The notes under the pieces are model-generated. The model was not told where the DNA came from. It ran no database searches and saw nothing but the letters and a program-made list of their open reading frames with translations. Of a stretch of 64,000 nt of DNA, positions 1 through 49,572 are shown piece after piece (the first letter of the stretch is position 1; each line of letters begins with the position of its first letter). Source of the stretch: a virus; the IMG/VR virus record IMGVR_UViG_3300027917_001949, positions 88,754 through 152,753 of that record, one strand, 5' to 3'. Both the position numbers and the translations under genes were made by a program.

Positions 1-450
1 AACATCACCTGAGCAACCCTCACCATAGTCACCGATACGGAAGCAATAAACGACTTTCCCAGGAAAATTTACCAGGAGTCTTTCGGCTCTCTCGATACAC
101 TTTTCCATGTATTCGCTATCCCATTCCCACTCATAATCCCACTTGTAGGCATCTGCTTCGGTTTCGTCATCGTAACGCCAACCACCTGTACGTATCAGTC
201 TGGCTAATTCACTCCTTTTTCCATTGCCGGTGAAGCACTTAAACCTTTCTTTGCACGAGTCGCACTCTGGTTGCGGTGGGTTGCAAAGTAATATTCCTTT
301 CTGTCGTTTCATCCACGTAAGTAATAACTCAGCTTCTTCAAGACTTGCACCTTTGGACATAAGTTCAATAGGCAGAGTCGGTCTCTTATCCAATACGATA
401 AGAAAACTAGCCGAACTGCTATTACTTACGAAACCACTACGAATTTTCAT
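1..450 (-). CDS. Phage protein starting MKIRSGFVSNSSSASF and carrying the CxxCxxRFxC module (partial; runs off left edge, absent from ORF track)
   Basis: Hand translation from ATG at 450: MKIRSGFVSNSSSASFLIV...LLCNPPQPECDSCKERFKCFTG...; no stop before position 1. Confidence 0.85.
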   Translation of the reverse strand, partial: MKIRSGFVSNSSSASFLIVLDKRPTLPIELMSKGASLEEAELLLTWMKRQKGILLCNPPQPECDSCKERFKCFTGNGKRSELARLIRTGGWRYDDETEADAYKWDYEWEWDSEYMEKCIERAERLLVNFPGKVVYCFRIGDYGEGCSGDV

Positions 451-652
451 GCTTTATCCATTGACTTGTCCAGCATGTGAATCTAAACTCACACCCACCA
501 CAAGCTTCGTTCTTCTCCATCCACGTTGCACTATTTTCACTTGCTTTAAATGTCACCGCTCGACATCTGTCCATGTATGACTGCATTGTATATGAATTTT
601 CAGTGCCGAACGGTGACAATAATACATTGATATATCTAGTCTTACGTGTCAT
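437..652 (-). CDS. Small hypothetical protein with C-terminal CxxCxxRFxC module
   Basis: ACGGCEFRFTCWTS; overlaps both neighbours in operon style. Confidence 0.75.
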   Translation of the reverse strand: MTRKTRYINVLLSPFGTENSYTMQSYMDRCRAVTFKASENSATWMEKNEACGGCEFRFTCWTSQWIKHENS

Positions 653-2508
653 CGCAATAGACTTATAAACGTATCCTTTTCAATGGTCTCAGGAGACAGG
701 TCAATGTCGGCATCATCTGGTGAATCAACCATTTCCGCACCTGCATCAGATAGAACCTCAGCTAGGTCAATCGGATTCTTGTAGTAGTTGATTAACCACT
801 GCCTGCTATGCTCTGAATAGTCATTTGAGCGTGACGTTATTGACCTACCAAGATTTGTCTCGGCAAAGTAGAATCTCGTCATCTCAGAACCAGTAACCAA
901 TAACCCCAACATTTTTTGTTTGTCGGTTTGCGTAGAGTTTGTGATAACCTCGACGTTATTAGGGTCAACGGTACGCTTGTTCCATAATCTTTCCTTGTTT
1001 GATGCTACTAATATCTTGAATGGTACAGGAACGCTCGCATTGTAATTGAAGTAGTTCAAGTACATTAGATACGCTTTTTCCTCTTTCTGCTTCTTCACGT
1101 AGTACAACTCTGTCGCACCATTACGTGCATCAGTAAGGTCACCTGAGAATAGAACCCTATCCTCGTAACGGTATGAGGCATCCCATCCAAATTTCGTGTT
1201 CAGTTCAACTAACGAAAGGTCAAGGTCGATTCTGTGACCATCGACATTCTTCCAGTAGACACCGGCAACCATGTTCGTTGGTAACTCTACATAACTTCCA
1301 GATGGTAAGTTACCAGTAAACTGCTTCTCTGTAGCAGGAAGAGCATAGTGTATGGTATCAGGTATGTATACTTTCTTACCCTCTACATTACCTGCTATAT
1401 CCTCAACGATTGAATACATCACATCATCAAGAACTGATGTAACTTCGTCCTGCTTAATAAAGCTGAATGACTTCGCATAACCACGCCCATTACGTATCCT
1501 ATAAAGGATTGATGGTGACTCGCTCAACCTGAACTTAAGAGCATATGCAAGTCTAATCTTTCTGAATACATTTACGTCATTAATTGCATTAGCAAATGTT
1601 TCGTGGTCAAATGTACCCTGAGCTATCTTTGCTGTAACAAGATTAAGGTAGTCCTCCGGTAGTGGTGTGTGATGTTTAGGGGCAAGACGACGTACCTTGT
1701 TAACCAATGTCTTTAGTCTCTGATTAGTTCTGAATGCTAAGAACAGCGGTTTGAACCTGTAGAATATCTTTGCCAATTCCTGTAATCCATACTGCTTCTC
1801 GTAATCGGTGAATATTTTGGTTACATGAAGATTGTCTGTTGATTTGATTTCCTGTATTACAGCACGGCTCTTGATTAGAAGAGTCTTACCGGTTGCCTTG
1901 TAGATGGCATAACGTAATAGCTCAGTCGGATTCTTTGGAATTAGACCGGCATATTCATATAGCATTATTTTGACTTCTTTATTCTTCACCTTTTCGAAGT
2001 CAGTGAAGTCAACAAACAGAGCAACCTCTACCACCGCTTTGATGGTGTCGGTATGTAATGCAATACCAGATTCAAGCATTGCTATCAGCTTCTCAGTTAG
2101 TTCCTCTTTCGTATACCCCTTGATGACAGTCAGCTTTATTTTATCCAACTTCACCTTGGGAACGTTTAGAGCTTCATCCGGTATATACACATAGTCGCTG
2201 TCAATACCAAAAGCTTCGAAACCATAGGTAGTAAAGTAGTGCATGATTTGCTCAATAACAAGTTGCTCGATACTGGCATCACGAACTTTTGCCCAGGATT
2301 TGTGGAAGGTGCTGTTCATTTGCTCGCCAGAAAGACCAACGGTCTTGGTGACCAGTTCGACTAACTCGTTATAGTTGGTATAATTAGCAATAACCTCCGG
2401 TGCAAAAACGAATCCGAGTGGTATCGTTCGTTTCATCAATGCTTCATCGGTCTTTGTCTCCCTCTTGTTTATAGGTAATGCTCTGAATAATTTAATTGTT
2501 GCTTCCAT
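649..2508 (-). CDS. Large phage protein with probable C-terminal TerD-related domain
   Basis: Long ORF; likely start MEATIKL at 2508 (purine-rich RBS); RIDLDLS and FSGDLTDARNGATE resemble TerD-family motifs. Confidence 0.55.
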   Translation of the reverse strand: MEATIKLFRALPINKRETKTDEALMKRTIPLGFVFAPEVIANYTNYNELVELVTKTVGLSGEQMNSTFHKSWAKVRDASIEQLVIEQIMHYFTTYGFEAFGIDSDYVYIPDEALNVPKVKLDKIKLTVIKGYTKEELTEKLIAMLESGIALHTDTIKAVVEVALFVDFTDFEKVKNKEVKIMLYEYAGLIPKNPTELLRYAIYKATGKTLLIKSRAVIQEIKSTDNLHVTKIFTDYEKQYGLQELAKIFYRFKPLFLAFRTNQRLKTLVNKVRRLAPKHHTPLPEDYLNLVTAKIAQGTFDHETFANAINDVNVFRKIRLAYALKFRLSESPSILYRIRNGRGYAKSFSFIKQDEVTSVLDDVMYSIVEDIAGNVEGKKVYIPDTIHYALPATEKQFTGNLPSGSYVELPTNMVAGVYWKNVDGHRIDLDLSLVELNTKFGWDASYRYEDRVLFSGDLTDARNGATELYYVKKQKEEKAYLMYLNYFNYNASVPVPFKILVASNKERLWNKRTVDPNNVEVITNSTQTDKQKMLGLLVTGSEMTRFYFAETNLGRSITSRSNDYSEHSRQWLINYYKNPIDLAEVLSDAGAEMVDSPDDADIDLSPETIEKDTFISLLR

Positions 2509-2522
2509 TCTTCTCCCTCTGC

Positions 2523-5435: not shown

Positions 5436-5830
5436 TATAGTCCTCCCGTATGACGAAATTCTTTTTCGGTATAACAACGAAACCTATCGTAACAGTCATC
5501 ACATGACTTCACTGTAAAGGTTTCTTTAAGAAACTCCATACTATCGGTGTCACCATCCTCTGCCTTTTTCCTGATAAACTCAATCATCTTTGGTGATGCA
5601 CAGATTATGTCAGCATTGGCTTTGTCTTCTACCTCACAATTCAAACCATGCGTGAACCCTATGCTTCTTCCTTCTTGATGGAGTGTGGCAATTTCCATGA
5701 CCGCTTCTCCGGTAAGCTCTCGCAAGCATTTCGAAGCTTTTTTACGGACACAAATATCCTTGCATCCGTTGTCATCAGACGGATACCACTCGCCTTGTGT
5801 ATAGTTAGGTAACTTAATTCTAACTGCCAT
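5435..5830 (-). CDS. Hypothetical protein with C-terminal CxxCxxRFxC module
   Basis: Likely start MAVRIKL at 5830; ANADIICASP..., SCDDCYDRFRCYTE. Confidence 0.75.
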   Translation of the reverse strand: MAVRIKLPNYTQGEWYPSDDNGCKDICVRKKASKCLRELTGEAVMEIATLHQEGRSIGFTHGLNCEVEDKANADIICASPKMIEFIRKKAEDGDTDSMEFLKETFTVKSCDDCYDRFRCYTEKEFRHTGGL

Positions 5831-6530: not shown

Positions 6531-6883
6531 TCTTCGTCCTCCACAGTTACTTGAATGTGCCCAAATTCCGCAGGTACTTTAACGTGCCGTAACTCATCAG
6601 TATAAACCACGTCATTCTTTAATTCTGGTGTGGCTATTTTCTTAACTAAGTCACGGGCGGTCACATCTCGTAGTGACTTAACTCCCTTAAATGATGACAA
6701 TGGTATCTCAATAGGTTCATTACGGTCTGTAAAACACTGAAATCGCAGACTACATTGCCCGCACAACGTATCAATGCTTCGCTCTCGCCCGTAACAATGA
6801 TACTCCTTATATCTCTCGTTATCATAATTATGATTCTTGTCATCAAATACTATTCGTATTACCTGACCATGGTCTCTACTCAT
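6527..6883 (-). CDS. Hypothetical protein with internal CxxCxxRFxC module
   Basis: Likely start MSRDH at 6883 overlapping the UDG stop; CYG...LCGQCSLRFQCFTD. Confidence 0.75.
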   Translation of the reverse strand: MSRDHGQVIRIVFDDKNHNYDNERYKEYHCYGRERSIDTLCGQCSLRFQCFTDRNEPIEIPLSSFKGVKSLRDVTARDLVKKIATPELKNDVVYTDELRHVKVPAEFGHIQVTVEDEE

Positions 6884-7604
6884 AACAGTAAAACCTCTGT
6901 TTACATGATTTACATTTATTATCTCCCGTCCACCACTTCTCACACGTGTCTCGGAATGCGTTCATTTCGGCAATAATAGGTTTTGCATTAATGTCCTTGC
7001 TGAGTGGTGAATCAACTAGACGGAATTGCTTATCGACATGCTGATGTTGCATAGCATATTCGACAGCCTCTTTTATCTTAGTCCTTATATCTCTACCACG
7101 TTCGCTATTCTTTCCCCCACTATGAGCTATTGCCGCAGGATGGTATGACACGATTACATCATAATTTCTCCAATCAAAGGTAGTGCAGACAATCTCTTTC
7201 ATTGGTATCTTACCATTCCCACCAAGAGCTACGTACGGTACTTTACCCATACAAACAATGACTTCTGGTAATAGATTATCTATCTCCGCTATCATCCGTT
7301 CGTTGCACCACGTAATTTCTGCGTCGTTGGGGGTGCGATTATAGATTCGTCCGTCATTTACCTTTGTAGGTCTACATGTGACAGCGTTAACATAACTCGC
7401 ATCTTCACGCCTGCCACCACACTCCTCTATAATATCCATCAAGTCTCTGCCAGCAATCCCCACTAGAGGACGACCTTCTTGTGTCTCATTGAATCCTGGA
7501 GCTTCGGCAAGATAAAGTATCTTAGTGTCGTTTATCTCTGACGGCACAAGAACTGCTTGTTTTAGCGTACATTCGTCGCACTTACCCTTTGGTGCTTTTT
7601 CCAT
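6876..7604 (-). CDS. udg: Uracil-DNA glycosylase family 4 with an extra C-terminal CxxCxxRFxC module
   Basis: CDEC; LAEAPG, GRPLVG, NAVTCRP, YHPAA; tail KCKSCKQRFYCYE. Confidence 0.9.
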   Translation of the reverse strand: MEKAPKGKCDECTLKQAVLVPSEINDTKILYLAEAPGFNETQEGRPLVGIAGRDLMDIIEECGGRREDASYVNAVTCRPTKVNDGRIYNRTPNDAEITWCNERMIAEIDNLLPEVIVCMGKVPYVALGGNGKIPMKEIVCTTFDWRNYDVIVSYHPAAIAHSGGKNSERGRDIRTKIKEAVEYAMQHQHVDKQFRLVDSPLSKDINAKPIIAEMNAFRDTCEKWWTGDNKCKSCKQRFYCYE

Positions 7605-8050: not shown

Positions 8051-8379
8051 TCTAAATTCTCTGGATAGTTTTTATCGCTCTTATCGACCTTTACCACATC
8101 TTTACCGGTTGCCACATAAGAGTCATGTTTGCTCATCGTATAGTTTATTCTTCCCTCACCAAACATATACTCCGCCAACCCCTTTAAGTCCTTTATTCCG
8201 TGTTCAAGTGCCATCTCCTGAGAAATGAACACCTCATTCCGTTCCGATAGACATTTGAATCTCAATCGACAACCCACACACAGATATTTCTCTCTGCCAC
8301 GACAATCAAATCTCTCTGTTGTCGTTATTATATCATGGTTGTGAGTTACCTTTGGTAATTCAAGCTTAATTGTTACCAT
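8047..8379 (-). CDS. Hypothetical protein with CxxCxxRFxC module
   Basis: DCRGREKYLCVGCRLRFKCLSE. Confidence 0.75.
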   Translation of the reverse strand: MVTIKLELPKVTHNHDIITTTERFDCRGREKYLCVGCRLRFKCLSERNEVFISQEMALEHGIKDLKGLAEYMFGEGRINYTMSKHDSYVATGKDVVKVDKSDKNYPENLE

Positions 8380-9669: not shown

Positions 9670-10233
9670 CTAGTAATGGGCATCTGCTGGTACTGCATAT
9701 ATATTGAGGTCGGCATATTCTTTTCTTGGTGACCCGTCATTGAGTACACTCCACTTCGATAAAACATTTTTTAGATGTTCCTCGTTACGAATACCCTCAC
9801 CGTCTTGGTCGTATAGTTTTATAGTATAACCAGCATACCTGCCACAATTATAACACCAATGTCTGAATTGACCATCATCCATTAATTCATCATCCGTTTT
9901 AATGTTTATGTCATTTCTGATGTACCTGATGTTCTCTATAAAATGTTCCTTCGTATACCCCATCGCCTCGTCAAGAATACTATTAATTTTTCCGGTGAAG
10001 CAACGAAATCTTTCACTACAAAAATCACACTTAACAGACCCAAATTCACCACATATCTTCGTAGCCACGGGAAGCTCACCCCACCGTGCAGTGGCATATG
10101 TTTCTTTAAAGGTACTGTAGTAATCGAATGGGAAATGTGATTCACCACAAAGGTCATCAAAGATACTCTCTGCCTGTGCTAGAGCATCTTCCTCATCCTC
10201 AGCGTAGACTAACGCATATATAACTGTGTGCAT
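9670..10233 (-). CDS. Hypothetical protein with internal CxxCxxRFxC module
   Basis: FDYY...RWGELP-[ICGEFGSVKCDFCSERFRCFTG]-...YDQDGEGIR...VPADAHY. Confidence 0.8.
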   Translation of the reverse strand: MHTVIYALVYAEDEEDALAQAESIFDDLCGESHFPFDYYSTFKETYATARWGELPVATKICGEFGSVKCDFCSERFRCFTGKINSILDEAMGYTKEHFIENIRYIRNDINIKTDDELMDDGQFRHWCYNCGRYAGYTIKLYDQDGEGIRNEEHLKNVLSKWSVLNDGSPRKEYADLNIYAVPADAHY

Positions 10234-10682
10234 TATTCTTCACCCCATCCAAGTTTGTCTAAACCAAATTCTCGTACAATCTTATTCGCAGTTTTCTCAC
10301 CCCACCCCGATGCTACCGACCTCAATGAAAGGGTGATTATGTTGTGAGAGTATTCTTTCACATCAACGTATGGTAGCTCATTCAGAATCAAGTTCTTCCA
10401 CTGTAGTAACGTCCTACCTGTTCCGTTCGTTGTATCAACTTGCTTCCACTCCTCTGCCGTCAGGATAAGGTCATCACGATGCGTCCAGCACTTGAAACGA
10501 GCAGGGCATCGATTACATGTCATACGTGGACATTTCTCCGTAACAATTTCATTCCATCCGTTTTCTGGGTTCAAGTATTCAACACGAATCTGACGAACTT
10601 TCCTACGTACTCGTCGCTTCTTTGGTTCTTGTGATGCCAGTACTCGGTAGCGTTTATTCCACGCTTCTTCTACCTTGTTCAT
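10233..10682 (-). CDS. Hypothetical protein with CxxCxxRFxC module
   Basis: Likely start MNKV at 10682; KCPRMTCNRCPARFKCWTH. Confidence 0.75.
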   Translation of the reverse strand: MNKVEEAWNKRYRVLASQEPKKRRVRRKVRQIRVEYLNPENGWNEIVTEKCPRMTCNRCPARFKCWTHRDDLILTAEEWKQVDTTNGTGRTLLQWKNLILNELPYVDVKEYSHNIITLSLRSVASGWGEKTANKIVREFGLDKLGWGEE

Positions 10683-10687: not shown

Positions 10688-11149
10688 TTATCTCTCCGTA
10701 AAACATTTGAATCGATGTAAACAAGTATTGCAATTGTTACCTAACTCCATGTTTACCTGTGACCCCGCATCGTTTAATAACGAAGCAAGCTGGATGAGTT
10801 GCCCTTTTGTAAAGTCATTGGCAGTAAAGATACGTGGTACGGTCTCTTGAACAGCTTCGACCCAATCTTTACTTTCCTTTAACCCCCAATATGTGACTTC
10901 ACGTACCGCACGAATTACCGCAATCTTATTCATCCCAATATCGGTAATCTTCATGGTACACATGTTAGGTTGATACGCTGTTCTACGATACTCGGTATCA
11001 CATGTTAGGCATTTGATTATCATTTCAGCTTCGTTAGTGTCGGTGTTGACTAACCGGATATAAAATGCTTCTTGCCCACAGCGTTCGCATGTAGCGTGTT
11101 CGAGTACGGTGTCTCCTATCAGCATTTTATTGGGTGGTGGTGGTTTCAT
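10688..11149 (-). CDS. Zn-ribbon + ribosomal L7/L12 C-terminal-like domain + CxxCxxRFxC module
   Basis: CERC...CLTC; NKIAVIRAVREVTYWGLKESKDWVE (L7/L12 CTD signature); NCNTCLHRFKCFTER. Confidence 0.8.
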   Translation of the reverse strand: MKPPPPNKMLIGDTVLEHATCERCGQEAFYIRLVNTDTNEAEMIIKCLTCDTEYRRTAYQPNMCTMKITDIGMNKIAVIRAVREVTYWGLKESKDWVEAVQETVPRIFTANDFTKGQLIQLASLLNDAGSQVNMELGNNCNTCLHRFKCFTER

Positions 11150-11962: not shown

Positions 11963-12469
11963 CTATATTGCTTCCTTCATATCTTTTAACTCATTATATG
12001 AGTCCACAACAATATCTGTATCGTTCGCCCACTGCCAATTACCGGTGGTACATTTCACACCGTATGGGTATCCATTACACTCAAGGTTGCTTATCAGGAT
12101 ACCATACTCACGCTCATTATTCAATGCCTTCAACTGGTCAACAGTCCATCTCTCACCGAACAGTATCTCTGGTGACTCATTCTTTTTCTTACCCCTAATT
12201 TCCTCTGTCTTGTGAGATGTAGCACACTTAAATCTCTGACCACAGTCTTGGCACACATCTTCCAACCCCAACCGGTCAGCTTTGAACTCAATATCCTCGT
12301 CACATAGGACGTTTTGTGCTGAAATTACTTCTTGGTCGTAGAAGTACAAACCATATGTACCTCTTGGTATGTCGTCTAAGTTGGCAGGTATGCGAGTAGT
12401 CACCTCTCGTGTTTCGCTCTCTGCCACAAAAGCTCCTGGTTGATAAAAAGTTACGTAATGTTTTAACAT
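11963..12469 (-). CDS. Hypothetical protein with internal CxxCxxRFxC module
   Basis: MLKHYVTFYQPG...VCQDCGQRFKCATS...ILISNLECNG. Confidence 0.8.
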   Translation of the reverse strand: MLKHYVTFYQPGAFVAESETREVTTRIPANLDDIPRGTYGLYFYDQEVISAQNVLCDEDIEFKADRLGLEDVCQDCGQRFKCATSHKTEEIRGKKKNESPEILFGERWTVDQLKALNNEREYGILISNLECNGYPYGVKCTTGNWQWANDTDIVVDSYNELKDMKEAI

Positions 12470-12723
12470 CGAATCACTCTCTCCACTAATTTCACTTGGT
12501 ACGTCCCACCATATTCTTCCCTTACGACTCTGCCGCTTCGTACCAAGCTTTTAATTACTGACTCTGGTAGTGCTTTATATTTATGCTTCTCGTCAAACCT
12601 TGTCGCAAAACACGGAAATCTTGCCGGACAATCATCACACTGGTCATCACAGGTAAGAATGCACATATCGTCAAGTAGACACTCTTCCTGACACTCGCTT
12701 CCACAATCAATTGATATTTTCAT
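12463..12723 (-). CDS. Small Cys-rich protein with CxxCxxRFxC module
   Basis: CILTCDDQCDDCPARFPCFAT. Confidence 0.75.
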   Translation of the reverse strand: MKISIDCGSECQEECLLDDMCILTCDDQCDDCPARFPCFATRFDEKHKYKALPESVIKSLVRSGRVVREEYGGTYQVKLVERVIRC

Positions 12724-13575
12724 TCTATTGGTGTACCAACTCCCTCTCTATCTACTGCAAAGCAGTCCTCGAAACCACGTCGTTTTTTGTACTCAGTCAA
12801 CTCGGTTTCATCGTCGTATGCAACCACTTCGAGAAGAGTGTTGCTGTCTAGGAGTGCCAAGTTTTCATGTTCAGGGTATACATTATACATAACTTTCGTA
12901 AGATGTAACCCTAAAAACAATGACTCAGTGAACACAGGACGAATCCCGTATTGCTGACACACAAATATAAGTTCCGGTAAGTTGGTCGCTGCCTTGATTG
13001 TTCGTATCATCCTGTCCTCATAAAAGTTATTTCTAGTTGCTGTTCTCCCCGCACATTCAACACTTGTTGCACGTTCATGATAGTCCATTGACCATGTGAT
13101 ACGTTGTGATTATAATCATATTTTAACATACCTTGACACGATATGTCAAATCTTGTCGGAACAATTGCCTTAGTCTTTAATATTGACGACACGGGATGAC
13201 TATACACCACATGCCTTGCTCGTGTCATGCACTTGAACCTGTTCTCACAATCGTCACAATAGTCACCGATTATGTCTTTGGTAGATAATGATAAAGCCAT
13301 TTTCATTGTATTGCTCGGTTACGGATGTAGTACATGACGTACCCCAAATCAGGGGAACGAAATGTATATCCCATATCTTCCTCAGTATCATTCTCGTCCT
13401 CGTAGTCATACCGCAACCACTCAATCTCGTGTTCGTAGTCACTCTCTGCCACTCGCTTTGCTTCATCAATATCATGATAAAGACCCATCGAATGTTCGGT
13501 AGTATACTCTGTTCCCATCGGTCCGCCAAGATGAGTTAAGTCCTCGTAGATGAGTTCGTACACACTATCGGTCAC
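12720..13575 (-). CDS. Three small hypothetical genes (12720-13088; 13007-13306 with CxxCxxRFxC; 13303-13575)
   Basis: YCDDCENRFKCMTR in the middle gene; tandem overlaps. Confidence 0.7.
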
Positions 13576-13933
13576 GATACACCCCCGCTTGCCGGAGCTT
13601 GTTCAAGTCAAACTCGGCTTCTCTGTTCGTCCAGCAGATGAATCTCATGTTACATTCGGTACACTGGTCGGGGTAGTTCTTACATAGTATTGGTACTTTC
13701 TGACCCCAATGTGATGCGTCCACACCCATGATTAATCTGCCCTGACCGTCCACAGTCAATCCGTCACGACGTAACGCATCGATGTGTTTACATGTACGGT
13801 TACCACGCTGGTTGTATATCCAGCTTGGGCAGTTACAGGAGAATAAGCCATTTTGGTCTACCTTGATGGTGTAGTTTCGTCTGCCACTAGACGATGGTAC
13901 TTCTGCAAAAAAGTTATATTTCATTAATCCCAC
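13565..13933 (-). CDS. SWIM zinc-finger protein with C-terminal CxxCxxRFxC module
   Basis: SSSG..YTI...SCNCPSW...RTCKH (SWIM); LCKNYPDQCTECNMRFICWTN. Confidence 0.8.
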   Translation of the reverse strand: MGLMKYNFFAEVPSSSGRRNYTIKVDQNGLFSCNCPSWIYNQRGNRTCKHIDALRRDGLTVDGQGRLIMGVDASHWGQKVPILCKNYPDQCTECNMRFICWTNREAEFDLNKLRQAGVYRDR

Positions 13934-14501
13934 TCCAGATTAATAGTATCACATTCTTCCATAATTGGACACAGTGTGCCCTGTTTCTGAGAAATCGAAC
14001 ATCCTTTACACTTACTGAAGTCAACGATTCTCGTTTCTTCTTCAGTATAGTCGTAATCGTTGAGGGATGTCATCATCGCAGCTTGTGATGCCTCATCGAT
14101 GTCACTAACATCAATATCATAAAATCCCTTGAGCTTCTTGTATATTCTTATTTCCATACTGCACTTCCTACCCAACTCGGATTGCCAATTAATACTCCCC
14201 GTTCATCTATTTGGCGTGAACCATGATTAAATTTACGACAATAATGACACATGAATTTCAAGTTATAGTTGTACTGATGTTCGTTTATCGCAAATATACG
14301 GTTACAATACGGACATTGCATAAGATAGTAACCCTGTAGTTCTGCCCCGATTACGATGGTTTTCGTTGGTTCAATATTCTCCAACACCAACCACCGGTCT
14401 GTTCTCGTAGTGTAACATTTAAACCGCCACGGACACTCGTCGCAGTTTCCCTCACATTCACCCCAAATTGCAGTATTACCAAAGTGTGTTATTATCTTCA
14501 T
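13924..14501 (-). CDS. Two Cys-rich genes (13924-14175; 14148-14501 with N-terminal CxxCxxRFxC plus Zn ribbon)
   Basis: ECEGNCDECPWRFKCYTT; CPYC...CHYC. Confidence 0.7.
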
Positions 14502-16957: not shown

Positions 16958-17440
16958 TCATCGCCAAAACCTCTTTGTTGTTCTCGTGTTCCGTTGCATT
17001 TTTTGTGGGTCTTGTGAGAATACCTTACTATCACGAGGTTCTTCGTGTTGTGTTGTATAACATTTGAACCTATCCTGACAAGTGGTGCATATCTCACGTA
17101 TCTCCTTATTTAATAACTGCCGAATCTCGGAGTGTGGTCTGTTCTTACACTCTCGACATAGCGGTATGACAAAGTTACATGTGCTGTTCGTGTTAAATTG
17201 TAGCCGTTCAACTGTGGTGGGGAACAGGTTTTCACCTTTTACCAATCCACACAACGTGCAATACACCATGCGACTACGCTGACGTTCTTCCTTCCGGCAC
17301 TTATCACAGATAGGTTTAATGACGGTAACTCCGTCCTCTACCATCGTGTATGCCCGTACATTTTCATGTACGAAACCACAATTAACACACCAACCTATAC
17401 GATGTTTTGTGTTACTCATAATTTTTTCTGTGCTGAACAA
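16958..17440 (-). CDS. Double Zn-finger protein with CxxCxxRFxC module
   Basis: CVNC/CDKC, CTLC/CREC, ICTTCQDRFKCYTT; probable ATG at 17419. Confidence 0.75.
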   Translation of the reverse strand: MFSTEKIMSNTKHRIGWCVNCGFVHENVRAYTMVEDGVTVIKPICDKCRKEERQRSRMVYCTLCGLVKGENLFPTTVERLQFNTNSTCNFVIPLCRECKNRPHSEIRQLLNKEIREICTTCQDRFKCYTTQHEEPRDSKVFSQDPQKMQRNTRTTKRFWR

Positions 17441-17643: not shown

Positions 17644-18126
17644 TTACCTCATCGTTGTGAGACACTTAAATCTATCTGGACAAGTGCCACAATTCTCACC
17701 TTCTCCTAGTGGTAACTCCTCGATAGTTATTCGTAAAAATTTATTGAGATTCTTCGTGAGTATATCAGTCACGTCTTTCAATGCTGAATATCGAACCGGA
17801 CGGTGATTATAGTGCCATGCCCTTTTGGTTGCGGTGTTATCTCTGAAATCTGGACAACCTAGATAGTGATAGATTAGATAACGAGTACCGTCCTCAAGTC
17901 GTTCCACCGCATCCTCTTCCTCTTTGAGAAAGCCTTCCATCACCGCAGGTTGTCTTGCCGCTTTAGATTCTCTTACCAGAAGTTCCTTTCGAGCATCCTG
18001 AACTTTGTCAATCAGATTATCAGCTTCGAAATGAAACTCTTGTGGTATAACTGACAAACGTTTCATTAGGGCAGCAAGTTGTTCACGTATCTCATCGAAT
18101 TCTTTAGCCGCTTCCGTTCTGTTCAA
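17644..18126 (-). CDS. Hypothetical protein with C-terminal CxxCxxRFxC module
   Basis: NCGTCPDRFKCLTTMR*. Confidence 0.75.
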   Translation of the reverse strand: MNRTEAAKEFDEIREQLAALMKRLSVIPQEFHFEADNLIDKVQDARKELLVRESKAARQPAVMEGFLKEEEDAVERLEDGTRYLIYHYLGCPDFRDNTATKRAWHYNHRPVRYSALKDVTDILTKNLNKFLRITIEELPLGEGENCGTCPDRFKCLTTMR

Positions 18127-20207: not shown

Positions 20208-20209
20208 AT

Positions 20210-23785: not shown

Positions 23786-24456
23786 CTGTTAGACTTATTC
23801 GCCAGGATTTCCGAGTTGAGCAATATCATTGCCACTTTTGGATTAATTTTCCGTTTTTCAAGCGTATTACGTATCATCATAGTTTTATCGGTATCCCACA
23901 GTAATTTAAGTATTGATAGTAAATCATCTTTAGTTAGTTTCCACTTTGTGCCACCAAACTGAGCATACCATAAACCATTTTCGCACCGGAAACTCAGACC
24001 TATGTTGCCACACTCCTTCCGTAGTTTGTTAAGATTCACAACTCTATCAAGCTCTTTCTTCTTTTCAACATGTGCCTTCGCTTTCTCTACCCTCTCTTCA
24101 TATGTCGGCTCTACCGGTACATTGTATGTACCATCATCAACATTGCCCGTCCAACAGTTGAAGAAGCTCTTACAAGTTTTGTCACACTCACACGACAATC
24201 CTTTAGCACTTGTCACACTACCCCACACATGAGGTCGGCATTGTGGGTGAAGTATTATTGGTGGGATATTGACATCTGTAACCTCTTGGCTAAACGGATT
24301 CCACCTACCACCACTCTTATATCCTGCGTTGGTAGCGTGACAGTGTGGGCATTCCATTTTGTTTAATTGGACACCATGAATGGCACGCTTCTTCGCCTTA
24401 TCTCTAATCGATAATGTAGTGAAATCGTTACCACATATATTACAGTGAAACTTCAT
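23782..24456 (-). CDS. Zn-ribbon protein with variant Cys module
   Basis: CNIC...CPHC; CECDKTCKSFFNCWTG. Confidence 0.75.
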   Translation of the reverse strand: MKFHCNICGNDFTTLSIRDKAKKRAIHGVQLNKMECPHCHATNAGYKSGGRWNPFSQEVTDVNIPPIILHPQCRPHVWGSVTSAKGLSCECDKTCKSFFNCWTGNVDDGTYNVPVEPTYEERVEKAKAHVEKKKELDRVVNLNKLRKECGNIGLSFRCENGLWYAQFGGTKWKLTKDDLLSILKLLWDTDKTMMIRNTLEKRKINPKVAMILLNSEILANKSNS

Positions 24457-24550: not shown

Positions 24551-25563
24551 TCAATTTTGATGATTTTCATCTACTTCCCCATCCTCTATTATTTTAGCAC
24601 GAGCCGCAATTTTTTGCAAGTCCACTCCATTCATTGCCAAGAACCTATCTATCAACTCATGAATGGTTGGCTCTTGCATACCATTGAACGGTACTTTGGT
24701 CAAGTCTTTATCGACATTAATATTCAAGGCATCACCGGAGTAGCATTTGAATTTTAATTTGCAATCCTTACATATATGGTCGTAATCGAGCTTGCCAAGA
24801 CACCGCTTGTCGGTGAGTAGTTTGTATTTCTTGTTATCAAAGGTAAGGTAAATCGGTTTGCCAGGAGCTTCCTTTAGCTCCTTAATTTCAGCCGTAAATA
24901 CAACAGTATCATCCATTATTAACCTCTTTCTTTTTTAGATATGCTACCCAATAATCGGCAGCGTCCACTCTAACATCCCTACGACCACGACCTGCACCAC
25001 GACCACGCCACCGTATACCCCACCGTTGATGAACAAGAAATTTACTACACAAACGTCTGAACTCCTGCCCCTCTTTATCATTAGGTACTTCGAATGTGTA
25101 ATTTACGTCAATAGATACAGAATTTAATTGTCTACTTGTGACACAAGCAAACTTGTCATGACAACTAAGACATGGTTCATCATCATAATTAGGAGTGCCA
25201 ATCTCTTGTCTACACCTTGCTATTCTTCTATCTACCGGTTTCATCGACTGGTACATCTAATCCCTCTTTCTTTAGGGTATAACATTTGAATCTATCCTCA
25301 CATACCCCACAAGCATCCAGTGCCCTGAACGTATGACAATCTCTAACGTCTACGAAGTCTTTCATTTGAGATGTATTTAGTATCCAAGAATTACCGTCCT
25401 CGAACGCTAGCCAGAAGCTGTCTTTACCTACCTTATGCCCGATGTATCTAATCCAACCAAACTTTCCGAGAAACGTCTCTTCTCCGATTCTGCCGGTTTC
25501 CTTGACATAGACTCTATCACCGACATGGTATGTATTAGTCTCTAACCGTAATGATTTACTCAA
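24551..25563 (-). CDS. Three consecutive genes each with the CxxCxx[RK]FxC module (24551-24916, 24909-25256, 25228-25563)
   Basis: ICKDCKLKFKCYSG; PCLSCHDKFACVTS; ACGVCEDRFKCYTL. Confidence 0.8.
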
Positions 25564-26488
25564 TGGTATCTATCTGCTCAACAGTTTTATCAAGTCTGAT
25601 ACCCCTGAACTGAGGATGCCGTATCGAACTAACACTACCATCAATATTGCGTATAATACCATAATGTTTGACCGTAACAACAATCTCCGGTATCACTGTA
25701 TACACGTCACCTTGCTTGCCGGTAGTAATTAGCTGTAGTTTCTTGAGCATATCCTCTTTCGTCATGGTCTTTGAGCCAAATCCACCACCAACTCTTGTGA
25801 GTCTTTCTACCTTACCATCAACCATATGCCCTACGACCACCGTCAAATTTTTTGCCCTCTTTGTACCGGTCTCGTATCCCATAATCACAAGGTCAGCATC
25901 TGCCACATACTTACGCTTTGCCCATCTCCCTGTCATACCATCGATGTATCTGGATAGGGGGTCTTTCACTACTACACCCTCAAACCCCGCACTAACCACC
26001 TTATTAAAGAAGGCATCAAGCTCTGCCTGGTTGTTGCATATTGCCATCGGTACGAGTCCAACCTTCTTGTTGTAGAACGTTTGACGTTGTAGTAATTTCC
26101 TGATTTCTATATGGTTAGATGTTTTCCACACTTCCTCGCCATCATACTTCAAACAACCGAACACTCCCAAGTTTAGGTCATCATCCAACTTGTGACGTGC
26201 GAAGTCATAGAAGTTATTCCCGCCACCATATACCAACTCAGCTAAGAACACGCTATCATCTGGTATATCTATTTGAGTCACCGGCATGTCAGTGCGTATC
26301 CTACCATGCTCTGGTTTGTTTGCGAGATAAATGTCTCCCTGTTTCTTTATCAGATATTGAAACTCACCGTCCAGTTTAACCTCGGCAATGTTAGGAAATG
26401 AAATGTAATCACCCTCTATTTCCATGAAAGGTAATCCCTGATAAAGTGGGCTATTCTTATCTTGATATGTTTTCATAATGTCCAACAC
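25556..26488 (-). CDS. lig: ATP-dependent DNA ligase (minimal adenylation + OB domains)
   Basis: Motif I EVKLDG, AEL, EGVVVK, WAKRK, VGGGF, SIRHPQF.GIRLDK. Confidence 0.9.
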   Translation of the reverse strand: MLDIMKTYQDKNSPLYQGLPFMEIEGDYISFPNIAEVKLDGEFQYLIKKQGDIYLANKPEHGRIRTDMPVTQIDIPDDSVFLAELVYGGGNNFYDFARHKLDDDLNLGVFGCLKYDGEEVWKTSNHIEIRKLLQRQTFYNKKVGLVPMAICNNQAELDAFFNKVVSAGFEGVVVKDPLSRYIDGMTGRWAKRKYVADADLVIMGYETGTKRAKNLTVVVGHMVDGKVERLTRVGGGFGSKTMTKEDMLKKLQLITTGKQGDVYTVIPEIVVTVKHYGIIRNIDGSVSSIRHPQFRGIRLDKTVEQIDTIE

Positions 26489-27002
26489 CTGAATCTATAT
26501 TTGCAACCTCGACATGCCTTGTCTCGTGTTAGGTATTTAGGATTTCTTAGGCTACCAAGTCTGGTTATTCCTTGACACTCGCTGAGGTCATGGTCAAATA
26601 CGTTTCCGTCTGGATAATTCATACTATACTTTTTACGCATTGACTCACATACATCTATGTACCGCTTCCTCACTTCGTACTCCAACACGCAAATCGTGCC
26701 TTGCACTCGCTACAATCATCTGGTGTAAGTGCCGTACGCCTACAAAAGGCAAAGATTGTAATATCGGATATACTCTCCCTTTCACGTGTTTCCACAACCA
26801 ACTCTGCTTTTAGTTTTCGCCATGCCTTGACAAATGCTTCTGTATACGCTACCGGTGTATTTGCTATTAACCTTGCGACTGCCGCAGCCGACTTCTCCAT
26901 CTCCTGTCTACCGGCTGCACGGGTGACAGGAACAGATGTTATGTCATATAAGTCACTATCAGCGTCACCTGCCAACATAATCTTTGGTTCGTTAGCTTCC
27001 AC
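26473..27002 (-). CDS. Two genes with C-terminal CxxCxxRFxC module (26473-26706, 26670-27002)
   Basis: ACRGCKYRFRCWTL*; FCRRTALTPDDCSECKARFACWSTK*. Confidence 0.75.
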
Positions 27003-30312: not shown

Positions 30313-30766
30313 CCGGATGAAAGATGCCGTCCACCATCTCCTCCACGAAATATTCGTCCTCTGTATCATCACCATGCTCACCTTCGAACAGGCTAGTCCA
30401 GTCACCTAACGTATCTTTCGCTTCATCGTCCGTCTCTCCATATACAAAATAGGTTGTATAACTGGTATATGTCTGAGTAATACGGAATTTTCTAGCTTTG
30501 ATACTTAAACATTTGAAACGGTAACCACACTTGTCACACATGTCACTGCCACCATGTACAACCTGGCATGCAAGCATTTTCTGCCGATACTCAACTTTCT
30601 TCCCTCGACATTCCCTACATTCACCCTCATGTGATTGATTCTTACCACAGTGAGGACACCTATACCATGTCAGTTTCCTGCCGGTGCGTACGTAATGACA
30701 GTCCTTGCAGTAACCATGATATGTTGGTACACCTTTCTTACCACAGCCGACACATGTGTTAATCAT
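30305..30766 (-). CDS. Zn-finger + CxxCxxRFxC protein, paralog of 30973-31350
   Basis: CPHCG...CREC; ACQ...MCDKCGYRFKCLSI. Confidence 0.75.
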   Translation of the reverse strand: MINTCVGCGKKGVPTYHGYCKDCHYVRTGRKLTWYRCPHCGKNQSHEGECRECRGKKVEYRQKMLACQVVHGGSDMCDKCGYRFKCLSIKARKFRITQTYTSYTTYFVYGETDDEAKDTLGDWTSLFEGEHGDDTEDEYFVEEMVDGIFHPVD

Positions 30767-30972: not shown

Positions 30973-31350
30973 TCATTTTGGTCTGACATAATAATTCTGG
31001 TCTAATTCCTCAACGTCTGTATCGTCGCCCCACGAGTTACTATTACCTTCCTCGTATACGTCTCTACCATTATCCCACACCAGTTCCCGTGCCTCATCCT
31101 TGTTCGTTGCATAGACGATACAACTATCGTAGCCGGAATAATACTCCATCACATGGTATCGTTTCATTTTAACAGTATGACACTTGAATCGAAAGTCACA
31201 ACACTGACACGCATCGATAGGTGTGCCAATAATATATCCACATTTAAGTATTTCCTGCCGGAGTTTTTCACCACGCATTTCACAATACCAACATGAATCA
31301 TATTGGTTATGTATTCGCCCACATTCAGGACATTTCCAAGTATTAGCCAT
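30973..31350 (-). CDS. Zn-finger + CxxCxxRFxC protein, paralog of 30305-30766
   Basis: CPECG...CWYC; KCG...ACQCCDFRFKCHTV. Confidence 0.75.
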   Translation of the reverse strand: MANTWKCPECGRIHNQYDSCWYCEMRGEKLRQEILKCGYIIGTPIDACQCCDFRFKCHTVKMKRYHVMEYYSGYDSCIVYATNKDEARELVWDNGRDVYEEGNSNSWGDDTDVEELDQNYYVRPK

Positions 31351-33326: not shown

Positions 33327-33746
33327 TCATAAGTCCTTTTTCCTTTTCACATCGAAGCAACGAACCAGATATTTCTGCCGGTTTTCCATCTGGTCATGTC
33401 TGAACTTACCTCTGGCATCCCACCTGTTTCGTGATTCAAGCGTGGTTTGATATTCATTTGGTTGACCGGCATTAACAGTGATAAGTTCATCGGTTTTTTC
33501 ATACGGAAACATACCCCATTCAGCAAGTATGTCAAAAGCCGTCTCGATATACTGTTCACCGTAACCGTAAGTAAATGGTACTCTACCTATCAACTCATTA
33601 TTTACATAAACATTTACGCTATGGTACGTGTTGCCATTTGTTCGTTCAAACCATCTCTTTGCTTCAATCATCACGATACAATTGCCAGCACGATTTCCGG
33701 TCAAACATTTGAATCGATTATTGCATTGTTCACATACATTATCCAT
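33327..33746 (-). CDS. Hypothetical protein with N-terminal CxxCxxRFxC module
   Basis: Likely start at 33746 after AAGGAG: MDNVCEQCNNRFKCLTG...RWFERTNGNTYHS...YGYGEQY. Confidence 0.8.
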   Translation of the reverse strand: MDNVCEQCNNRFKCLTGNRAGNCIVMIEAKRWFERTNGNTYHSVNVYVNNELIGRVPFTYGYGEQYIETAFDILAEWGMFPYEKTDELITVNAGQPNEYQTTLESRNRWDARGKFRHDQMENRQKYLVRCFDVKRKKDL

Positions 33747-44576: not shown

Positions 44577-44582
44577 GGTATT

Positions 44583-46616: not shown

Positions 46617-46649
46617 TGGTAGTCTTAACAGTATAAAATAAGACTACCA
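46617..46649 (+). terminator. Hairpin after the 252-aa ORF (possible terminator)
   Basis: TGGTAGTCTTA...TAAGACTACCA. Confidence 0.45.
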
Positions 46650-46987: not shown

Positions 46988-47016
46988 TTGACTTGAGCCT
47001 ACTTTTGTGGTATAAT
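46988..47016 (+). promoter_or_regulatory. Sigma70-type promoter
   Basis: TTGACT-17-TATAAT with TG extension. Confidence 0.8.
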
Positions 47017-47037
47017 ATAATTAGAGGGAGAAGGACT

Positions 47038-47283: not shown

Positions 47284-48412
47284 TTATGCTCAGATGTGTG
47301 CAGCAGCGTACGATTTGTATCCTGAATTATACTCCGAGTTTGTGCGGTGCGTTTCGTTTCCATCCAGTATCTTTTATGGTGATAGAGAACATCAGACGTT
47401 ACTTCCTCATGTCTATCAGCTTAAAGCAGTGATTACTTCGGATGATAGCTTGTTGGTCGCTTTTATGGTTCAGTATGCTGGTAAGTTTAAATATGACTCA
47501 CTGGAAAAACTACTATTGCATATATTGATGTACGAGCATTATAACCGTCTATGGAACGGAGAGACGTGGCGACGTAAGAGAATCTTATAAAGGGGTAGAG
47601 ATGAAAAGTAAATTACTTTGGTTAGGAGTCGGTATAATGTTAATCCTGATAACCATATACATAACAGCGTGTGGTTGTGAAGGTCAGGCATTTCCATTAC
47701 CGTATTTTAGATAATATGAATATGATGTGTGATAATTGTGGACGTAGAGAGGACTTCAGTCCTTTACGTCTTGGTAAGAGATGCGGACTTTGTAAGTCTG
47801 GTAAGTGGATTCCGGTTAAAAATCCGGCTTTTTCAGTCGTGACCAGTTCAGAATCTGTTAAAACCTAGTTGGTGGGGTGTTGGGTCTTGTTTTTCCGTAG
47901 GATTTTAGAATTTTTTTAAATTTGTTACCATTTTAGTGTAACAAAACTTGCCTAACTTCGTAGTATATAAGTAGGGGAAGGTATGCAGTATAGTATATGG
48001 TCAGAAGGATATAGAGCTACTGGTAACAGCAGCGGTGCTAATTTTGAAGGAGTAGGACATGGCGAAACGTTCAGAGAAGCGTGTGACGACCTCGCACGAC
48101 GTGACCAGGTTTTTGCTAAGTACTACAACCCAGAAAAGTTAACCTTGTGGGGTTGTAGGTTGTTCGATAATGAGAGCGATGCGAGAAAGAGCTTTGGATA
48201 AGTTAATAGATGATGTTATCATTAAGTTAATATCTTATGATGAAGAAGAGGACACAGAAACCGCACGATATTTCTGGAACATGTGGAAAGAAGGTATTAA
48301 TGAGGAACATTTCGGTGACTGCACGAATGAACCGAACACATGTACCCGTTGTTTAGCGGAACTTTATTATGAACGTGCAGAAGAACTCATTAATCTAATT
48401 ACGGGGATGTAA
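47258..48412 (+). CDS. Small hypothetical genes (47258-47590, 47671-47868, 47983-48201, 48170-48412)
   Basis: Tandem plus-strand ORFs. Confidence 0.6.
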
Positions 48413-48733
48413 GGGTTCGACAGGGTATTGAGGTATACATAAGCAGGTAGTCCAGGGTAAGACTTAAAACACCCGAAAAAAATAATTGCTGAATGTAATT
48501 TATTTGTAGTCCTCGATGAAGGACTACTCTTCGTGAATGAGGAAGCTGATACTCTTCTCGAAGACCGTTTATCAGCAGACCCTACTGAGTCTTTAGCAGT
48601 AGTTTAAAACTAAAGATGCTCCACGTACAGTAAGACGTTCCGCTGGACGTGTGTAAGAGAGTGAACGTCTGAACCTGAAGAAAGTGTATATGTAGGTATT
48701 CTGGACGGGGAGTTCGACTCTCCCCCATCTCCA
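48403..48733 (+). ncRNA. ssrA: tmRNA (SsrA), about 331 nt, CCA not encoded
   Basis: 5' GGGGATG pairs with 3' CATCTCC-A (G3.U70 alanine identity); TTCGAC D-region; T-arm GGGGAGTTCGACTCTCCCC; helix 2; pk1 AGTC/GACT + GGGT/ACCC; tag ORF 48488-48607. Confidence 0.92.
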
Positions 48734-48912
48734 CAGTGGTGGTAGTAGCTAAATAGTAGCATGCCGATGACGGTAAACGTCATAATCTGGGATAGGGTTC
48801 TTACATGCTTACTACCGCTAGGGATAATATCTGTCGTCGATTTCCAAGGACCTTACATGCTTATGACGTTACGTCATAGATTTTATTTAGCAGGTATATA
48901 TGCTTACGACAC

Positions 48913-49572
48913 ATGAAGACAAGGTTAATAAACTGTCCAGCAGAAGGTAGTATATGGTGCGACGCTTTACACTGTGAGAAGTGTCCAGAGAGATTTCTAT
49001 GCTACTCAACAAAAGGTACGATAAAAATAGTTTCAAGAATACGTTTTAAACGCTTTCGTATTTTCCACTGGATGAACAAGTACGACGACGATAATTTAAA
49101 GGAAATAATTGAAAAGCAGACACATAATAGCGTCAGTAATCGACAGAGAAAATAGTATGACCACGGATATGTACTGTGATGCATATAACTGTATAGAATG
49201 TCCAATACGGTTTAAATGCTTCACTACTACTGGACATTTATACGTGTCATACGAAGAGTATCTGGAAATGCAACCGTTCCGCTGGAAGCTTCACGATGGT
49301 AGTAAAGGTAGAGAAATCCGTCGAGAGACGTGGTGTATCTCTGAAAGGTGTGACCAATGTCCAATTCGCAGTCACTGTACTATGATTCGAGACACTTAAA
49401 TGACCCTTCACTGTGCGTAGCATGTGATAAGAGATTTCAATGTTATACTTCTAGAAAAAGAAGTGAGGACGGATACTGTAATATCGATAGATTTCTGAAG
49501 TTACCTGATGGAGTAGTCAGAGAGGTGCAGATAAGGAAAGCAAAACGGCAAGGTCATTACTTCACAGAATGA
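48913..49572 (+). CDS. Three tandem small CxxCxxRFxC proteins (48913-49155, 49157-49399, 49357-49572)
   Basis: WCDALHCEKCPERFLCYST; YCDAYNCIECPIRFKCFTT; LCVACDKRFQCYTS. Confidence 0.75.

Follow-up and report, generated by a model that had tools for sequence, protein, structure and literature searches.

The Cas4/AddB/Dna2 family of nucleases carries an "iron staple", in which three clustered C-terminal cysteines with C-x2-C-x5-C spacing and one distant cysteine bind a [4Fe-4S] cluster that pins remote parts of the chain together (PMC3466216). The N-terminal CX5CX2CX5C motif of RseC/RnfF, in which the last three cysteines are conserved and the first is dispensable or variable, forms an O2-sensitive [4Fe-4S] cluster in the isolated domain (PMC11729352). 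WhiB-like proteins of actinobacteria and actinophages (PF02467) are small proteins with C-x(n)-C-x2-C-x5-C ligands, in which Arg is often found in the arrangement C-x2-C-P-V-R-x2-C and the cluster-bearing face is a docking surface for sigma factor. FNR also has a [4Fe-4S] site of this three-plus-one kind, and endonuclease III and MutY have an iron-sulfur cluster loop with C-x6-C-x2-C-x5-C spacing.

About one in five proteins of an uncultured phage with a genome of about 153 kb, and of its relatives, carries the same 12-residue module, C-x2-C-x2-[RK]-F-x-C-x-[TS]. The iron staple is an integral part of one PD-(D/E)XK nuclease fold, whereas the phage module is a free unit on dozens of unrelated small proteins, with its own R-F...aromatic-T residues and usually with the fourth cysteine only 3-20 residues away. 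Some copies read CGDCPVRFKC and share the Arg position of WhiB. However, there is no WhiB profile match, because only 1 of 149 segments hit the Pfam family, at E 0.012, and only 1 of 149 hit the PHROG WhiB family; the G[VI]WGG turn and the basic tail are absent, and WhiB is a single family rather than a graft on many. The RseC motif is single-copy in a membrane protein of the Rnf/Rsx system, lacks the R-F/aromatic-T signature and shows no detectable homology. The last three cysteines of the EndoIII/MutY loop are spaced identically, and a few copies, including the first in the window, also have x6 to the first cysteine, but that loop belongs to the HhH-GPD glycosylase fold, whereas here the upstream spacing varies from 0 to over 20 residues and no HhH-GPD domain is present.

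Distribution of the module and its carriers

The window is a 64,000-nucleotide stretch of a 152,753-bp virus record. The initial annotation described the motif at 27 positions and a variant near 24150, on about 28 otherwise unrelated proteins, and this observation is confirmed. All 27 positions hold the motif in open frames, 25 as strict matches and two as near-variants, with 24 on the minus and three on the plus strand. The variant near 24150 is real and degenerate, and one more degenerate copy was found in a protein that already has a strict copy (Table 1). Fifty mononucleotide shuffles of the window gave no strict match. As had been stated, the 50-64 kb part lacks the module, and there are no copies in the window after 49.5 kb, which corresponds to the genome after 138.2 kb. 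However, the annotation undercounted, because the whole genome (G000) has 49 copies, and five other complete relatives from metagenomes (G001-G005) have 32-68 each.

The claim that conservation acts on protein rather than on a DNA repeat also holds. Codon use in the module matches that of the genome (Cys TGT 76% versus 72%, with Arg spread over six codons), and third-position identity between copies is 0.52 against 0.48 expected. With the module masked, only 1 pair of the 49 carriers shows BLAST similarity. Pfam names only the UDG and an L7/L12 C-terminal domain among 24 of the window's 27 carriers scanned. No Pfam, PHROG or PDB family covers the module, and a search of 1.84 billion proteins found it only in small proteins, the contigs examined being of this phage group. 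The statement that no such system has been described agrees with our searches, which found no paper but do not cover all the literature.

Table 1 Module copies and the radical SAM gene in the window
Position	Strand	Sequence	Feature
229..264	-	CDSCKERFKCFT	module; carrier also bears the N-terminal GFVSNSSS tag; upstream Cys at x6 (C-x6-C-x2-C-x5-C)
467..502	-	CGGCEFRFTCWT	module in a 71-aa protein
2731-3744			radical SAM + SPASM protein
5468..5503	-	CDDCYDRFRCYT	module near the C-terminus of a 164-aa protein; the other Cys are distal
6728..6763	-	CGQCSLRFQCFT	internal module in a 138-aa protein
6879..6914	-	CKSCKQRFYCYE	variant at the end of a 45-aa C-terminal extension of a family-4-like UDG; extension absent in two orthologs
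8245..8280	-	CVGCRLRFKCLS	module in a 110-aa protein; conserved in 3 orthologs
9994..10029	-	CDFCSERFRCFT	module in a 187-aa protein
10482..10517	-	CNRCPARFKCWT	module in a 166-aa protein
10697..10732	-	CNTCLHRFKCFT	C-terminal module on an L7/L12-CTD-like protein; fourth Cys distal (C64, just before strand 1), conserved, relocated in one ortholog
12218..12253	-	CQDCGQRFKCAT	module in a 168-aa protein
12604..12639	-	CDDCPARFPCFA	variant in a Cys-rich 86-aa protein
13223..13258	-	CDDCENRFKCMT	N-terminal module; a conserved Cys about 30 aa downstream
13628..13663	-	CTECNMRFICWT	module in a 122-aa carrier core to all five genomes compared
14409..14444	-	CDECPWRFKCYT	N-terminal module; upstream Cys at x3
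17054..17089	-	CTTCQDRFKCYT	module in a 160-aa protein
17656..17691	-	CGTCPDRFKCLT	C-terminal module; one distal Cys (C91) conserved in all five orthologs; four Cys in all
24148..24192	-	CECDKTCKSFFNCWT	degenerate variant (C-x3-C-x5-C-W-T)
24737..24772	-	CKDCKLKFKCYS	module in a carrier core to all five genomes
25137..25172	-	CLSCHDKFACVT	module
25276..25311	-	CGVCEDRFKCYT	module
26479..26514	-	CRGCKYRFRCWT	C-terminal module (one residue before the stop)
26679..26714	-	CSECKARFACWS	C-terminal module
30503..30538	-	CDKCGYRFKCLS	module; body paralogous to the next carrier
31174..31209	-	CQCCDFRFKCHT	module
33699..33734	-	CEQCNNRFKCLT	N-terminal module; nearest extra Cys is downstream
48973..49008	+	CEKCPERFLCYS	module in an 80-aa protein
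49190..49225	+	CIECPIRFKCFT	module in a 96-aa protein
49349..49384	+	CDQCPIRSHCTM	second, degenerate copy at the C-terminus of the same 96-aa protein
49414..49449	+	CVACDKRFQCYT	N-terminal module in a 71-aa protein

The three-plus-one cysteine rule

A new result of this analysis is that the module never stands alone. Among 243 single-module carriers, none lacks an additional Cys, whereas about 27.7 would be expected from the Cys frequency of small non-carriers, 19% of which have no Cys at all. The commonest class (78 carriers) has exactly one extra Cys. The extra Cys lies within 25 residues upstream in 79%, only downstream in 8% and at a distal site in 13%, and the usual upstream distance is 3-20 residues. 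Distal cysteines are conserved among orthologs. In the L7/L12-like family, the distal Cys is kept in four orthologs, whereas in the fifth it is lost and a new Cys appears 3 residues before the module. In small paralogs of G001, the single extra Cys sits either at residues 8-14 or at about residues 29-38 and is never absent. This points to a four-thiolate metal site built from three plus one cysteines. Consistently, the phage's own Cas4-like PD-(D/E)XK nuclease has exactly C14 plus C226-x2-C229-x5-C235, which is the iron-staple arrangement.

The fixed positions are nearly invariant, while the x positions of the module change faster (27% identity) than the protein bodies (42%) in 90 ortholog pairs, a pattern that fits a ligand loop. 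The CxxC of the module is not a classical zinc knuckle: Gly follows it in under 5% of copies, against 33% for other CxxC motifs in the same proteomes, and Pro after the first Cys, at 26% in those other motifs, is not among the six commonest residues in the module, which has D/E/N there in 69%. The module is gained and lost as a unit. The UDG works with its own four canonical cysteines and carries the module in 2 of 4 aligned orthologs, only in G000 and G003, and decayed copies also exist.

Inferred function and alternative readings

The interpretation in the initial annotation is partly supported. A genome-wide, protein-level, portable and lineage-specific add-on, placed N-terminally, internally or C-terminally on accessory proteins, is borne out, and the Fe-S-type ligand reading is strengthened by the obligatory fourth Cys, whereas its suggestions of a degron for ClpP, a sorting signal or a shared partner remain hypotheses. 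The favored explanation, held with moderate confidence, is that the motif is the invariant core of a phage-clade-specific, portable metal-binding mini-domain, in which the three cysteines and one further cysteine of the carrier, usually at the end of a hydrophobic segment, would bind a single metal centre, most likely a [4Fe-4S] cluster with Zn(II) as the alternative. The invariant Arg7, Phe8, aromatic 11 and Thr12 would pack around and shield the site. Our analysis establishes that the module is real and spread throughout the clade, that it is under protein-level selection, that it is gained and lost modularly and that it obeys the cysteine rule, whereas metal binding, the identity of the metal and what the bound module does for its carrier are inferred from sequence alone.

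Weak single-sequence Pfam and PHROG hits go to NifQ, WhiB and Cas4 among others. The phage's NifU-like protein is closest (74-82% identity) to those of Dehalococcoidia MAGs, a class that is mostly anaerobic, so that exposed clusters would be tenable, although this is only a hint. However, Fe-S biogenesis genes are not a clade trait, because NifU is present in only 1 of 5 genomes, where it sits inside the radical-SAM/tag array, and no IscA or NifS homologs were found. AlphaFold2 gives only moderate confidence for the isolated module (pLDDT 67 overall, 75-81 in the core) and low confidence (44-53) for the tag on the L7/L12-like protein, and no fold or sequence match to any solved Fe-S or Zn site was found. 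Furthermore, on the UDG the module is a separate appendix on an already complete enzyme, so stabilization cannot be its whole role, and the near-invariance of R, F and T would also suit a recognition motif.

A structural Zn(Cys)4 knuckle, which would fold around one zinc ion and simply stabilize small proteins as zinc ribbons do in many viral and archaeal small proteins, is possible but less likely. The four-Cys stoichiometry, the inconsistent presence of Fe-S assembly genes and weak Pfam hits to some zinc-ribbon families are compatible with it, and short self-contained knuckles are typical of zinc. The same cysteine arrangement holds zinc in one crystal structure of a Cas4-like nuclease (DUF3799, cited in PMC3466216), so that the cysteine grammar does not decide the metal. 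However, C-x2-C-x5-C plus a distal Cys is the recurrent [4Fe-4S] grammar of Cas4/AddB and RseC (PMC3466216, PMC11729352), rather than the paired-knuckle grammar of zinc ribbons. The same grammar recurs in WhiB, FNR and EndoIII. The module also lacks the C-P-x-C-G signature of other CxxC motifs in the same proteomes, and zinc in recombinant proteins can be an artefact that replaces Fe-S (PMC3466216).

It is a tentative possibility that the module is chiefly an address or docking handle, in which the metal only shapes a constant R-F-aromatic-T surface that brings many variable proteins to one phage or host partner, candidates being the core MoxR AAA+/metallopeptidase-vWA pair, a protease, the virion or a host hub. 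R7, F8 and T12 are as invariant as the cysteines, and the module is kept while bodies turn over, since 24 of 49 G000 carriers and 62 of 67 G001 carriers have no ortholog in the other four genomes. The module is appended to a complete UDG by a linker, about a third of copies are at the extreme C-terminus, and MoxR and the vWA-peptidase are core to all five genomes. However, no partner has been identified, the position is free, unlike that of cleaved targeting peptides, the x positions evolve faster than the bodies, and the distal fourth-Cys cases show the module folding back on its own carrier. The module was absent, beyond chance, from 301 Dehalococcoidia genomes, so no cellular prototype with a known partner exists there.

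A metal-free thiol or redox switch, in which the CxxC and the third Cys would form reversible disulfides that gate carrier activity, is unlikely. CxxC is the classic redox-active pair, and the host may be an anaerobe, again only as a hint from the NifU-like protein. However, an even four-Cys requirement with a movable fourth Cys fits a tetrahedral or cubane site better than a redox-active CxxC pair, although two disulfides would also use four cysteines; there is no thioredoxin-like context, and the invariant R, F and aromatic residues have no role in this model. The proposal that the module is a substrate of the phage radical SAM/SPASM enzyme, which would install thioether-type cross-links between the Cys and the conserved Phe or Thr, all of them donor and acceptor residues in sactipeptides and ranthipeptides, is not supported and very unlikely, because G002, a complete genome with terminal repeats, has 49 modules and no homolog of the enzyme, G004 has 32 modules and only a 69-aa remnant, and the enzyme instead sits beside, and co-varies with, arrays of genes that start MKxRxGFVSNSSSSSF (7-8 in G000, G001 and G003, 1 in G004 and 0 in G002).

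In the favored view, the module would be either a small cofactor-dependent knob at a chain end or a staple that pins the chain end to the body, and either would give small, fast-evolving accessory proteins of these phages a stable fold and a common exposed surface.

Distribution of the cysteine module

A six-frame scan of the window with the pattern C-x2-C-x2-[RK]-F-x-C-x-[TS] finds 25 exact matches, all of which lie in open frames at the positions listed in the initial annotation, and a slightly relaxed pattern adds two more copies, one of which is the tail of the UDG. The variant that had been placed near 24150 is present, and a further degenerate copy ends the protein that also holds the copy at 49190. 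Fifty shuffles of the window gave no strict match. The observation made in the initial annotation is real and highly non-random. The 152,753-bp virus record, of which the window is the last 64 kb, holds 49 copies between 47 and 138 kb and none in its structural and packaging parts. Anchored comparison of the copies gives the consensus [C]-x(3-20)-C-[DEN]-x-C-x-x-R-F-[KR]-C-[FYW]-T-x-[RK]. Codon use inside the module equals that of the genome, and third-position identity between copies is 0.52 against 0.48 expected. Therefore, selection acts on the protein, and the module is not a DNA repeat or an RPE-like in-frame mobile element. Paralogy of the carriers is also rejected because only one pair of the 49 carriers shows BLAST similarity when the module is masked. 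Among the 24 of the window's 27 carriers that were scanned against Pfam, only the UDG and a protein with an L7/L12 C-terminal domain are recognized.

The module is a trait of a phage clade. A degenerate DNA pattern scan of IMG/VR hit several 130-150-kb viral contigs many times each, and at protein level those loci are dense with the module, with up to 21 copies in 12.9 kb. Four complete relatives (G001 to G004; the present genome is G000), whose terminases are 70-78% identical to that of this phage, carry 68, 49, 51 and 32 copies, and a fifth complete relative has 34 profile matches. A profile of 149 module segments run against 1.84 billion representative proteins found 87 proteins at E<=0.001, all of them 56-187 aa long. 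The ten that were looked up come only from metagenome sources, and their only name is "hypothetical protein". The contigs that were inspected are of the same kind of phage, with 17 and 6 copies in about 20 kb. Two of the metagenome proteins, P0013 and P0014, represent a subfamily with an extended version of the module (D-D-x-F-M-x-E-C-W-R-R-T...K-C-D-x-C-x-L-R-F-K-C-Y-T), which is followed in some members by collagen-like G-x-x repeats.

In contrast, searches beyond this clade gave nothing that names the module. A word-based homolog search with the module profile found only the genome's own proteins. No Pfam or PHROG family recognizes the module, as at most 6 of 149 segments hit any one family, at E>=0.012. 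A PDB sequence search found only a chance RFYCYT match in an RNase P subunit (E 1.4), and Foldseek and VIA-align searches with a 42-aa model found no fold match. An ESM Atlas look-up of the core 122-aa carrier gave only unnamed viral clusters, one with SWIM on 11% of its members. In 301 Dehalococcoidia genomes, there were only three hits of 18-21 bits, about the chance number at this E-value cut-off. A literature search found no paper describing the module. No cultured relative of the phage was found: blastn with terminase plus portal gave no hit, and tblastn with the portal reached at most 27% identity to Bacillus and Clostridium phages. A terminase profile search of IMG/VR returned only members of the same clade, and hence no module-free sister group was found that would allow a phyletic-profile search for a protein reading the module. 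In one relative, the large terminase matches in two pieces about 160 bp apart (query residues 1-263 and 252-530), suggesting an insertion or a frameshift.

Coordinates of the module variants and neighboring features (positions refer to the window unless a genome or an individual locus, L, is named)
Feature	Position	Strand	Description
Variant copy	6879-6914		CKSCKQRFYCYE, UDG tail; the UDG lies at 6879-7604 on the minus strand
Variant copy	12604-12639		CDDCPARFPCFA
Degenerate variant	24148-24192		CECDKTCKSFFNCWT
Second, degenerate copy			CDQCPIRSHCTM, end of the protein that also holds the 49190 copy
Radical SAM/SPASM gene	2731-3744	-	Next to the array of tagged genes
Array of tagged genes	L005:8997-13203 and window 1-450	-	7-8 small genes that all begin MKxRxGFVSNSSSSSF, with a NifU-like gene inside the array
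L7/L12-like carrier	10691-11149	-	Pfam E 3e-10 for the ribosomal L7/L12 C-terminal domain; in this genome only, two extra CxxC pairs (C21/C24, C47/C50) in the N-terminal part
160-aa carrier family	17647-18126
MoxR-like AAA+ ATPase and metallopeptidase-vWA pair	18462-21400	-	DUF2201_N + DUF2201 in the latter; conserved in all five genomes; the pair noted for group 2.2 jumbo phages (PMC7824862)
tmRNA gene	48403-48736	+	Rfam RF00023, 115.9 bits; not reported by ARAGORN; three module genes follow directly downstream
Cas4-like PD-(D/E)XK nuclease	G000:52436-53179 (L003:14436-15179)	+	Core gene; exactly four Cys (C14, C226, C229, C235)
UDG ortholog of G004	G004:74971-76473 (= L101:5679-7181)		501 aa
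Large terminase in two pieces	L271/L272 (IMGVR_UViG_3300037067_002514)
Extended-module subfamily (P0013, P0014)	L118:9633-10070

Evolution of the carriers and the fourth cysteine

Across the five genomes G000 to G004, 34 ortholog clusters consist only of carriers with the module at the homologous place, and three clusters are mixed. In the UDG, the module sits at the end of a 45-residue C-terminal extension in G000 and G003, and this extension is missing in G001 and G002, although all four proteins keep the Cys of the glycosylase body. In the UDG ortholog of G004, residues 1-77 and 366-501 match the 242-aa UDG, so that about 290 residues are inserted (intein-like or a homing-endonuclease insert). 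A second family shows a decayed copy, CNQDCENYHMRFICLTN. Many carriers have no ortholog in the other four genomes, namely 24 of 49 in this genome and 62 of 67 in G001. In 90 ortholog pairs, the fixed positions of the module are nearly invariant, whereas its x positions are only 27% identical, less than the protein bodies at 42%.

Of 245 modules, 79% have another Cys within 25 residues upstream, 8% have one only downstream, and 13% have none nearby. However, none of the 243 single-module carriers lacks a further Cys anywhere in the protein, although about 28 such carriers would be expected from the background Cys frequency and 19% of small non-carrier ORFs have no Cys at all. The modal class (78 proteins) has exactly one extra Cys. 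Where the extra Cys is distal, it is conserved among orthologs. In the 160-aa family, it is a single Cys, C91 in the protein of this phage, about 55 residues upstream in all five orthologs. In the L7/L12-like family, it is the residue just before the first strand of the L7/L12 domain, C64 in the protein of this phage, in four orthologs, and in the fifth ortholog that Cys is gone and a new one appears three residues before the module. In a set of small G001 proteins that end in C-x2-C-x2-RF-x-C-W-T-x-stop, the single extra Cys sits either at residues 8-14 or at about residues 29-38 and is never absent. The nearest upstream Cys is typically preceded by hydrophobic residues. Such a pattern is what a four-ligand metal site looks like when three ligands come from a portable loop and the fourth from whatever the loop closes on.

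AlphaFold2 folded the L7/L12 domain of the L7/L12-like carrier (pLDDT 71-87) but did not place the tag (44-53), so that the model does not show whether C64 is close to the module. The predicted strand 65-70 starts right after C64, and the tag starts four residues after the last strand (131-135). In the split beta-alpha-beta topology of this domain, those two points should be neighbors, although this is inferred from the topology alone.

Putative metal centre and comparison with known cysteine motifs

The invariant C-x2-C-x5-C spacing plus a fourth, separate Cys is the arrangement of the [4Fe-4S] iron staple of Cas4 and AddB (PMC3466216), and the phage's own Cas4-like nuclease has exactly this pattern. 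A DruA-like protein, an archaeal-type Holliday-junction-resolvase-like endonuclease, RecA, a dCMP deaminase and a CCA-adding enzyme are core proteins as well. However, the module is not embedded in a RecB/PD-(D/E)XK nuclease domain: Pfam finds PDDEXK_1 only in the separate core nuclease, and among the 24 of the window's 27 carriers scanned only the UDG and the L7/L12-like protein have a Pfam hit. The same arrangement is found in the O2-sensitive cluster of RseC, where only the last three Cys are conserved (PMC11729352). WhiB, FNR, endonuclease III and NifQ share it too. Nevertheless, the module does not match the WhiB-like family PF02467, since only 1 of 149 segments hits the Pfam model (E 0.012) and 1 of 149 the PHROG WhiB-like family (E 0.0075). 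Nor does it fit the iron-sulfur loop of endonuclease III and MutY, C-x6-C-x2-C-x5-C at the C-terminus of an HhH-GPD domain: the upstream spacing is variable, being x6 in 10 of 194 copies from partial loci, and there is no HhH-GPD Pfam hit among the carriers scanned. The auxiliary-cluster motif of SPASM/Twitch proteins, C-x2-C-x5-C-x3-C within a radical SAM enzyme, is likewise excluded because no Cys is conserved at x3 after the third Cys and the carriers have no radical SAM domain.

Zinc remains the alternative to iron-sulfur. The same Cys arrangement has been crystallized with zinc (PMC3466216), and no Fe-S assembly gene is common to the clade. The NifU-like protein is rejected as clade-wide support for Fe-S because it is present in only 1 of 5 genomes, being confined to this genome, where it lies inside the array of tagged genes. 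However, the module does not have the two CxxC knuckles, typically C-P-x-C-G, of zinc ribbons and rubredoxin-type sites. It has only one CxxC, it lacks the C-P-x-C-G signature that other CxxC motifs of the same proteomes show (Gly follows the CxxC in under 5% of copies against 33% in those motifs), and no Zn-ribbon Pfam family matches more than 2 of 149 segments. The NifU-like protein is closest to those of Dehalococcoidia MAGs, at 74-82% identity against 71% or less for all other taxa listed, which is a weak hint of an anaerobic host. Host assignment by DNA matches to 401 Dehalococcoidia genomes failed, because the recurrent 33-39-nt hits are the conserved 3' end of the phage tmRNA gene, which matches the tmRNA 3' end of many Dehalococcoidia genomes at 94-100%, and the rest are RNR coding similarity. 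On present evidence, a four-Cys metal site is likely, and within that reading Fe-S is modestly favored over Zn. The distribution of the module, the action of selection on the protein and the three-plus-one Cys pattern come directly from the sequences, whereas metal binding, the identity of the metal and any partner are inferred.

Possible roles and implications

The interpretation in the initial annotation was partly supported. The module is portable and phage-clade-specific, and it probably acts as a cofactor-dependent clasp or knob. Because it is also appended by a linker to an already complete UDG, and because R, F and T are as invariant as the Cys, an added role as a common handle for one partner remains possible. 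The core MoxR AAA+/metallopeptidase-vWA pair is a candidate, although without evidence. By contrast, the suggestion that the module is a substrate for the phage radical SAM enzyme, as in RiPP-like systems, is rejected: the enzyme is present in G000, G001 and G003, is a remnant in G004 and is absent from G002, which still has 49 modules, and it tracks exactly the genes that begin MKxRxGFVSNSSSSSF, which number 7-8, 7, 8, 1 and 0 in those genomes, so that the enzyme belongs to that other tag. Two of the tagged proteins also carry the Cys module.

A broader reading, which is not excluded but is considered unlikely, is that a whole clade of roughly 130-150-kb phages, possibly of anaerobic hosts, builds about a fifth of its proteome on one portable, solvent-exposed [4Fe-4S] staple. 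Folding or activity of some 30-70 accessory proteins per genome would then be tied to the host's Fe-S supply and to anoxia, amounting to a proteome-wide iron/oxygen switch, while the module would at the same time present one common surface to a still unknown hub.

Fe-S staples and Cys4 knuckles are known, whereas the module itself, its portability and its load of roughly one protein in five are new. If confirmed, it is an unnamed protein module that marks a widespread uncultured phage group and annotates a fifth of its otherwise blank genes at a stroke. It would be a natural example of a minimal (12-30 residue) transferable metal-cluster site, one ligand of which can be supplied from anywhere in the host fold, and this is of interest for protein design and for understanding how new small proteins gain a stable fold. 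If the metal is iron-sulfur, the infection programme of these phages would, to an extent that as far as could be found has not been described for any virus, depend on host Fe-S assembly and oxygen.
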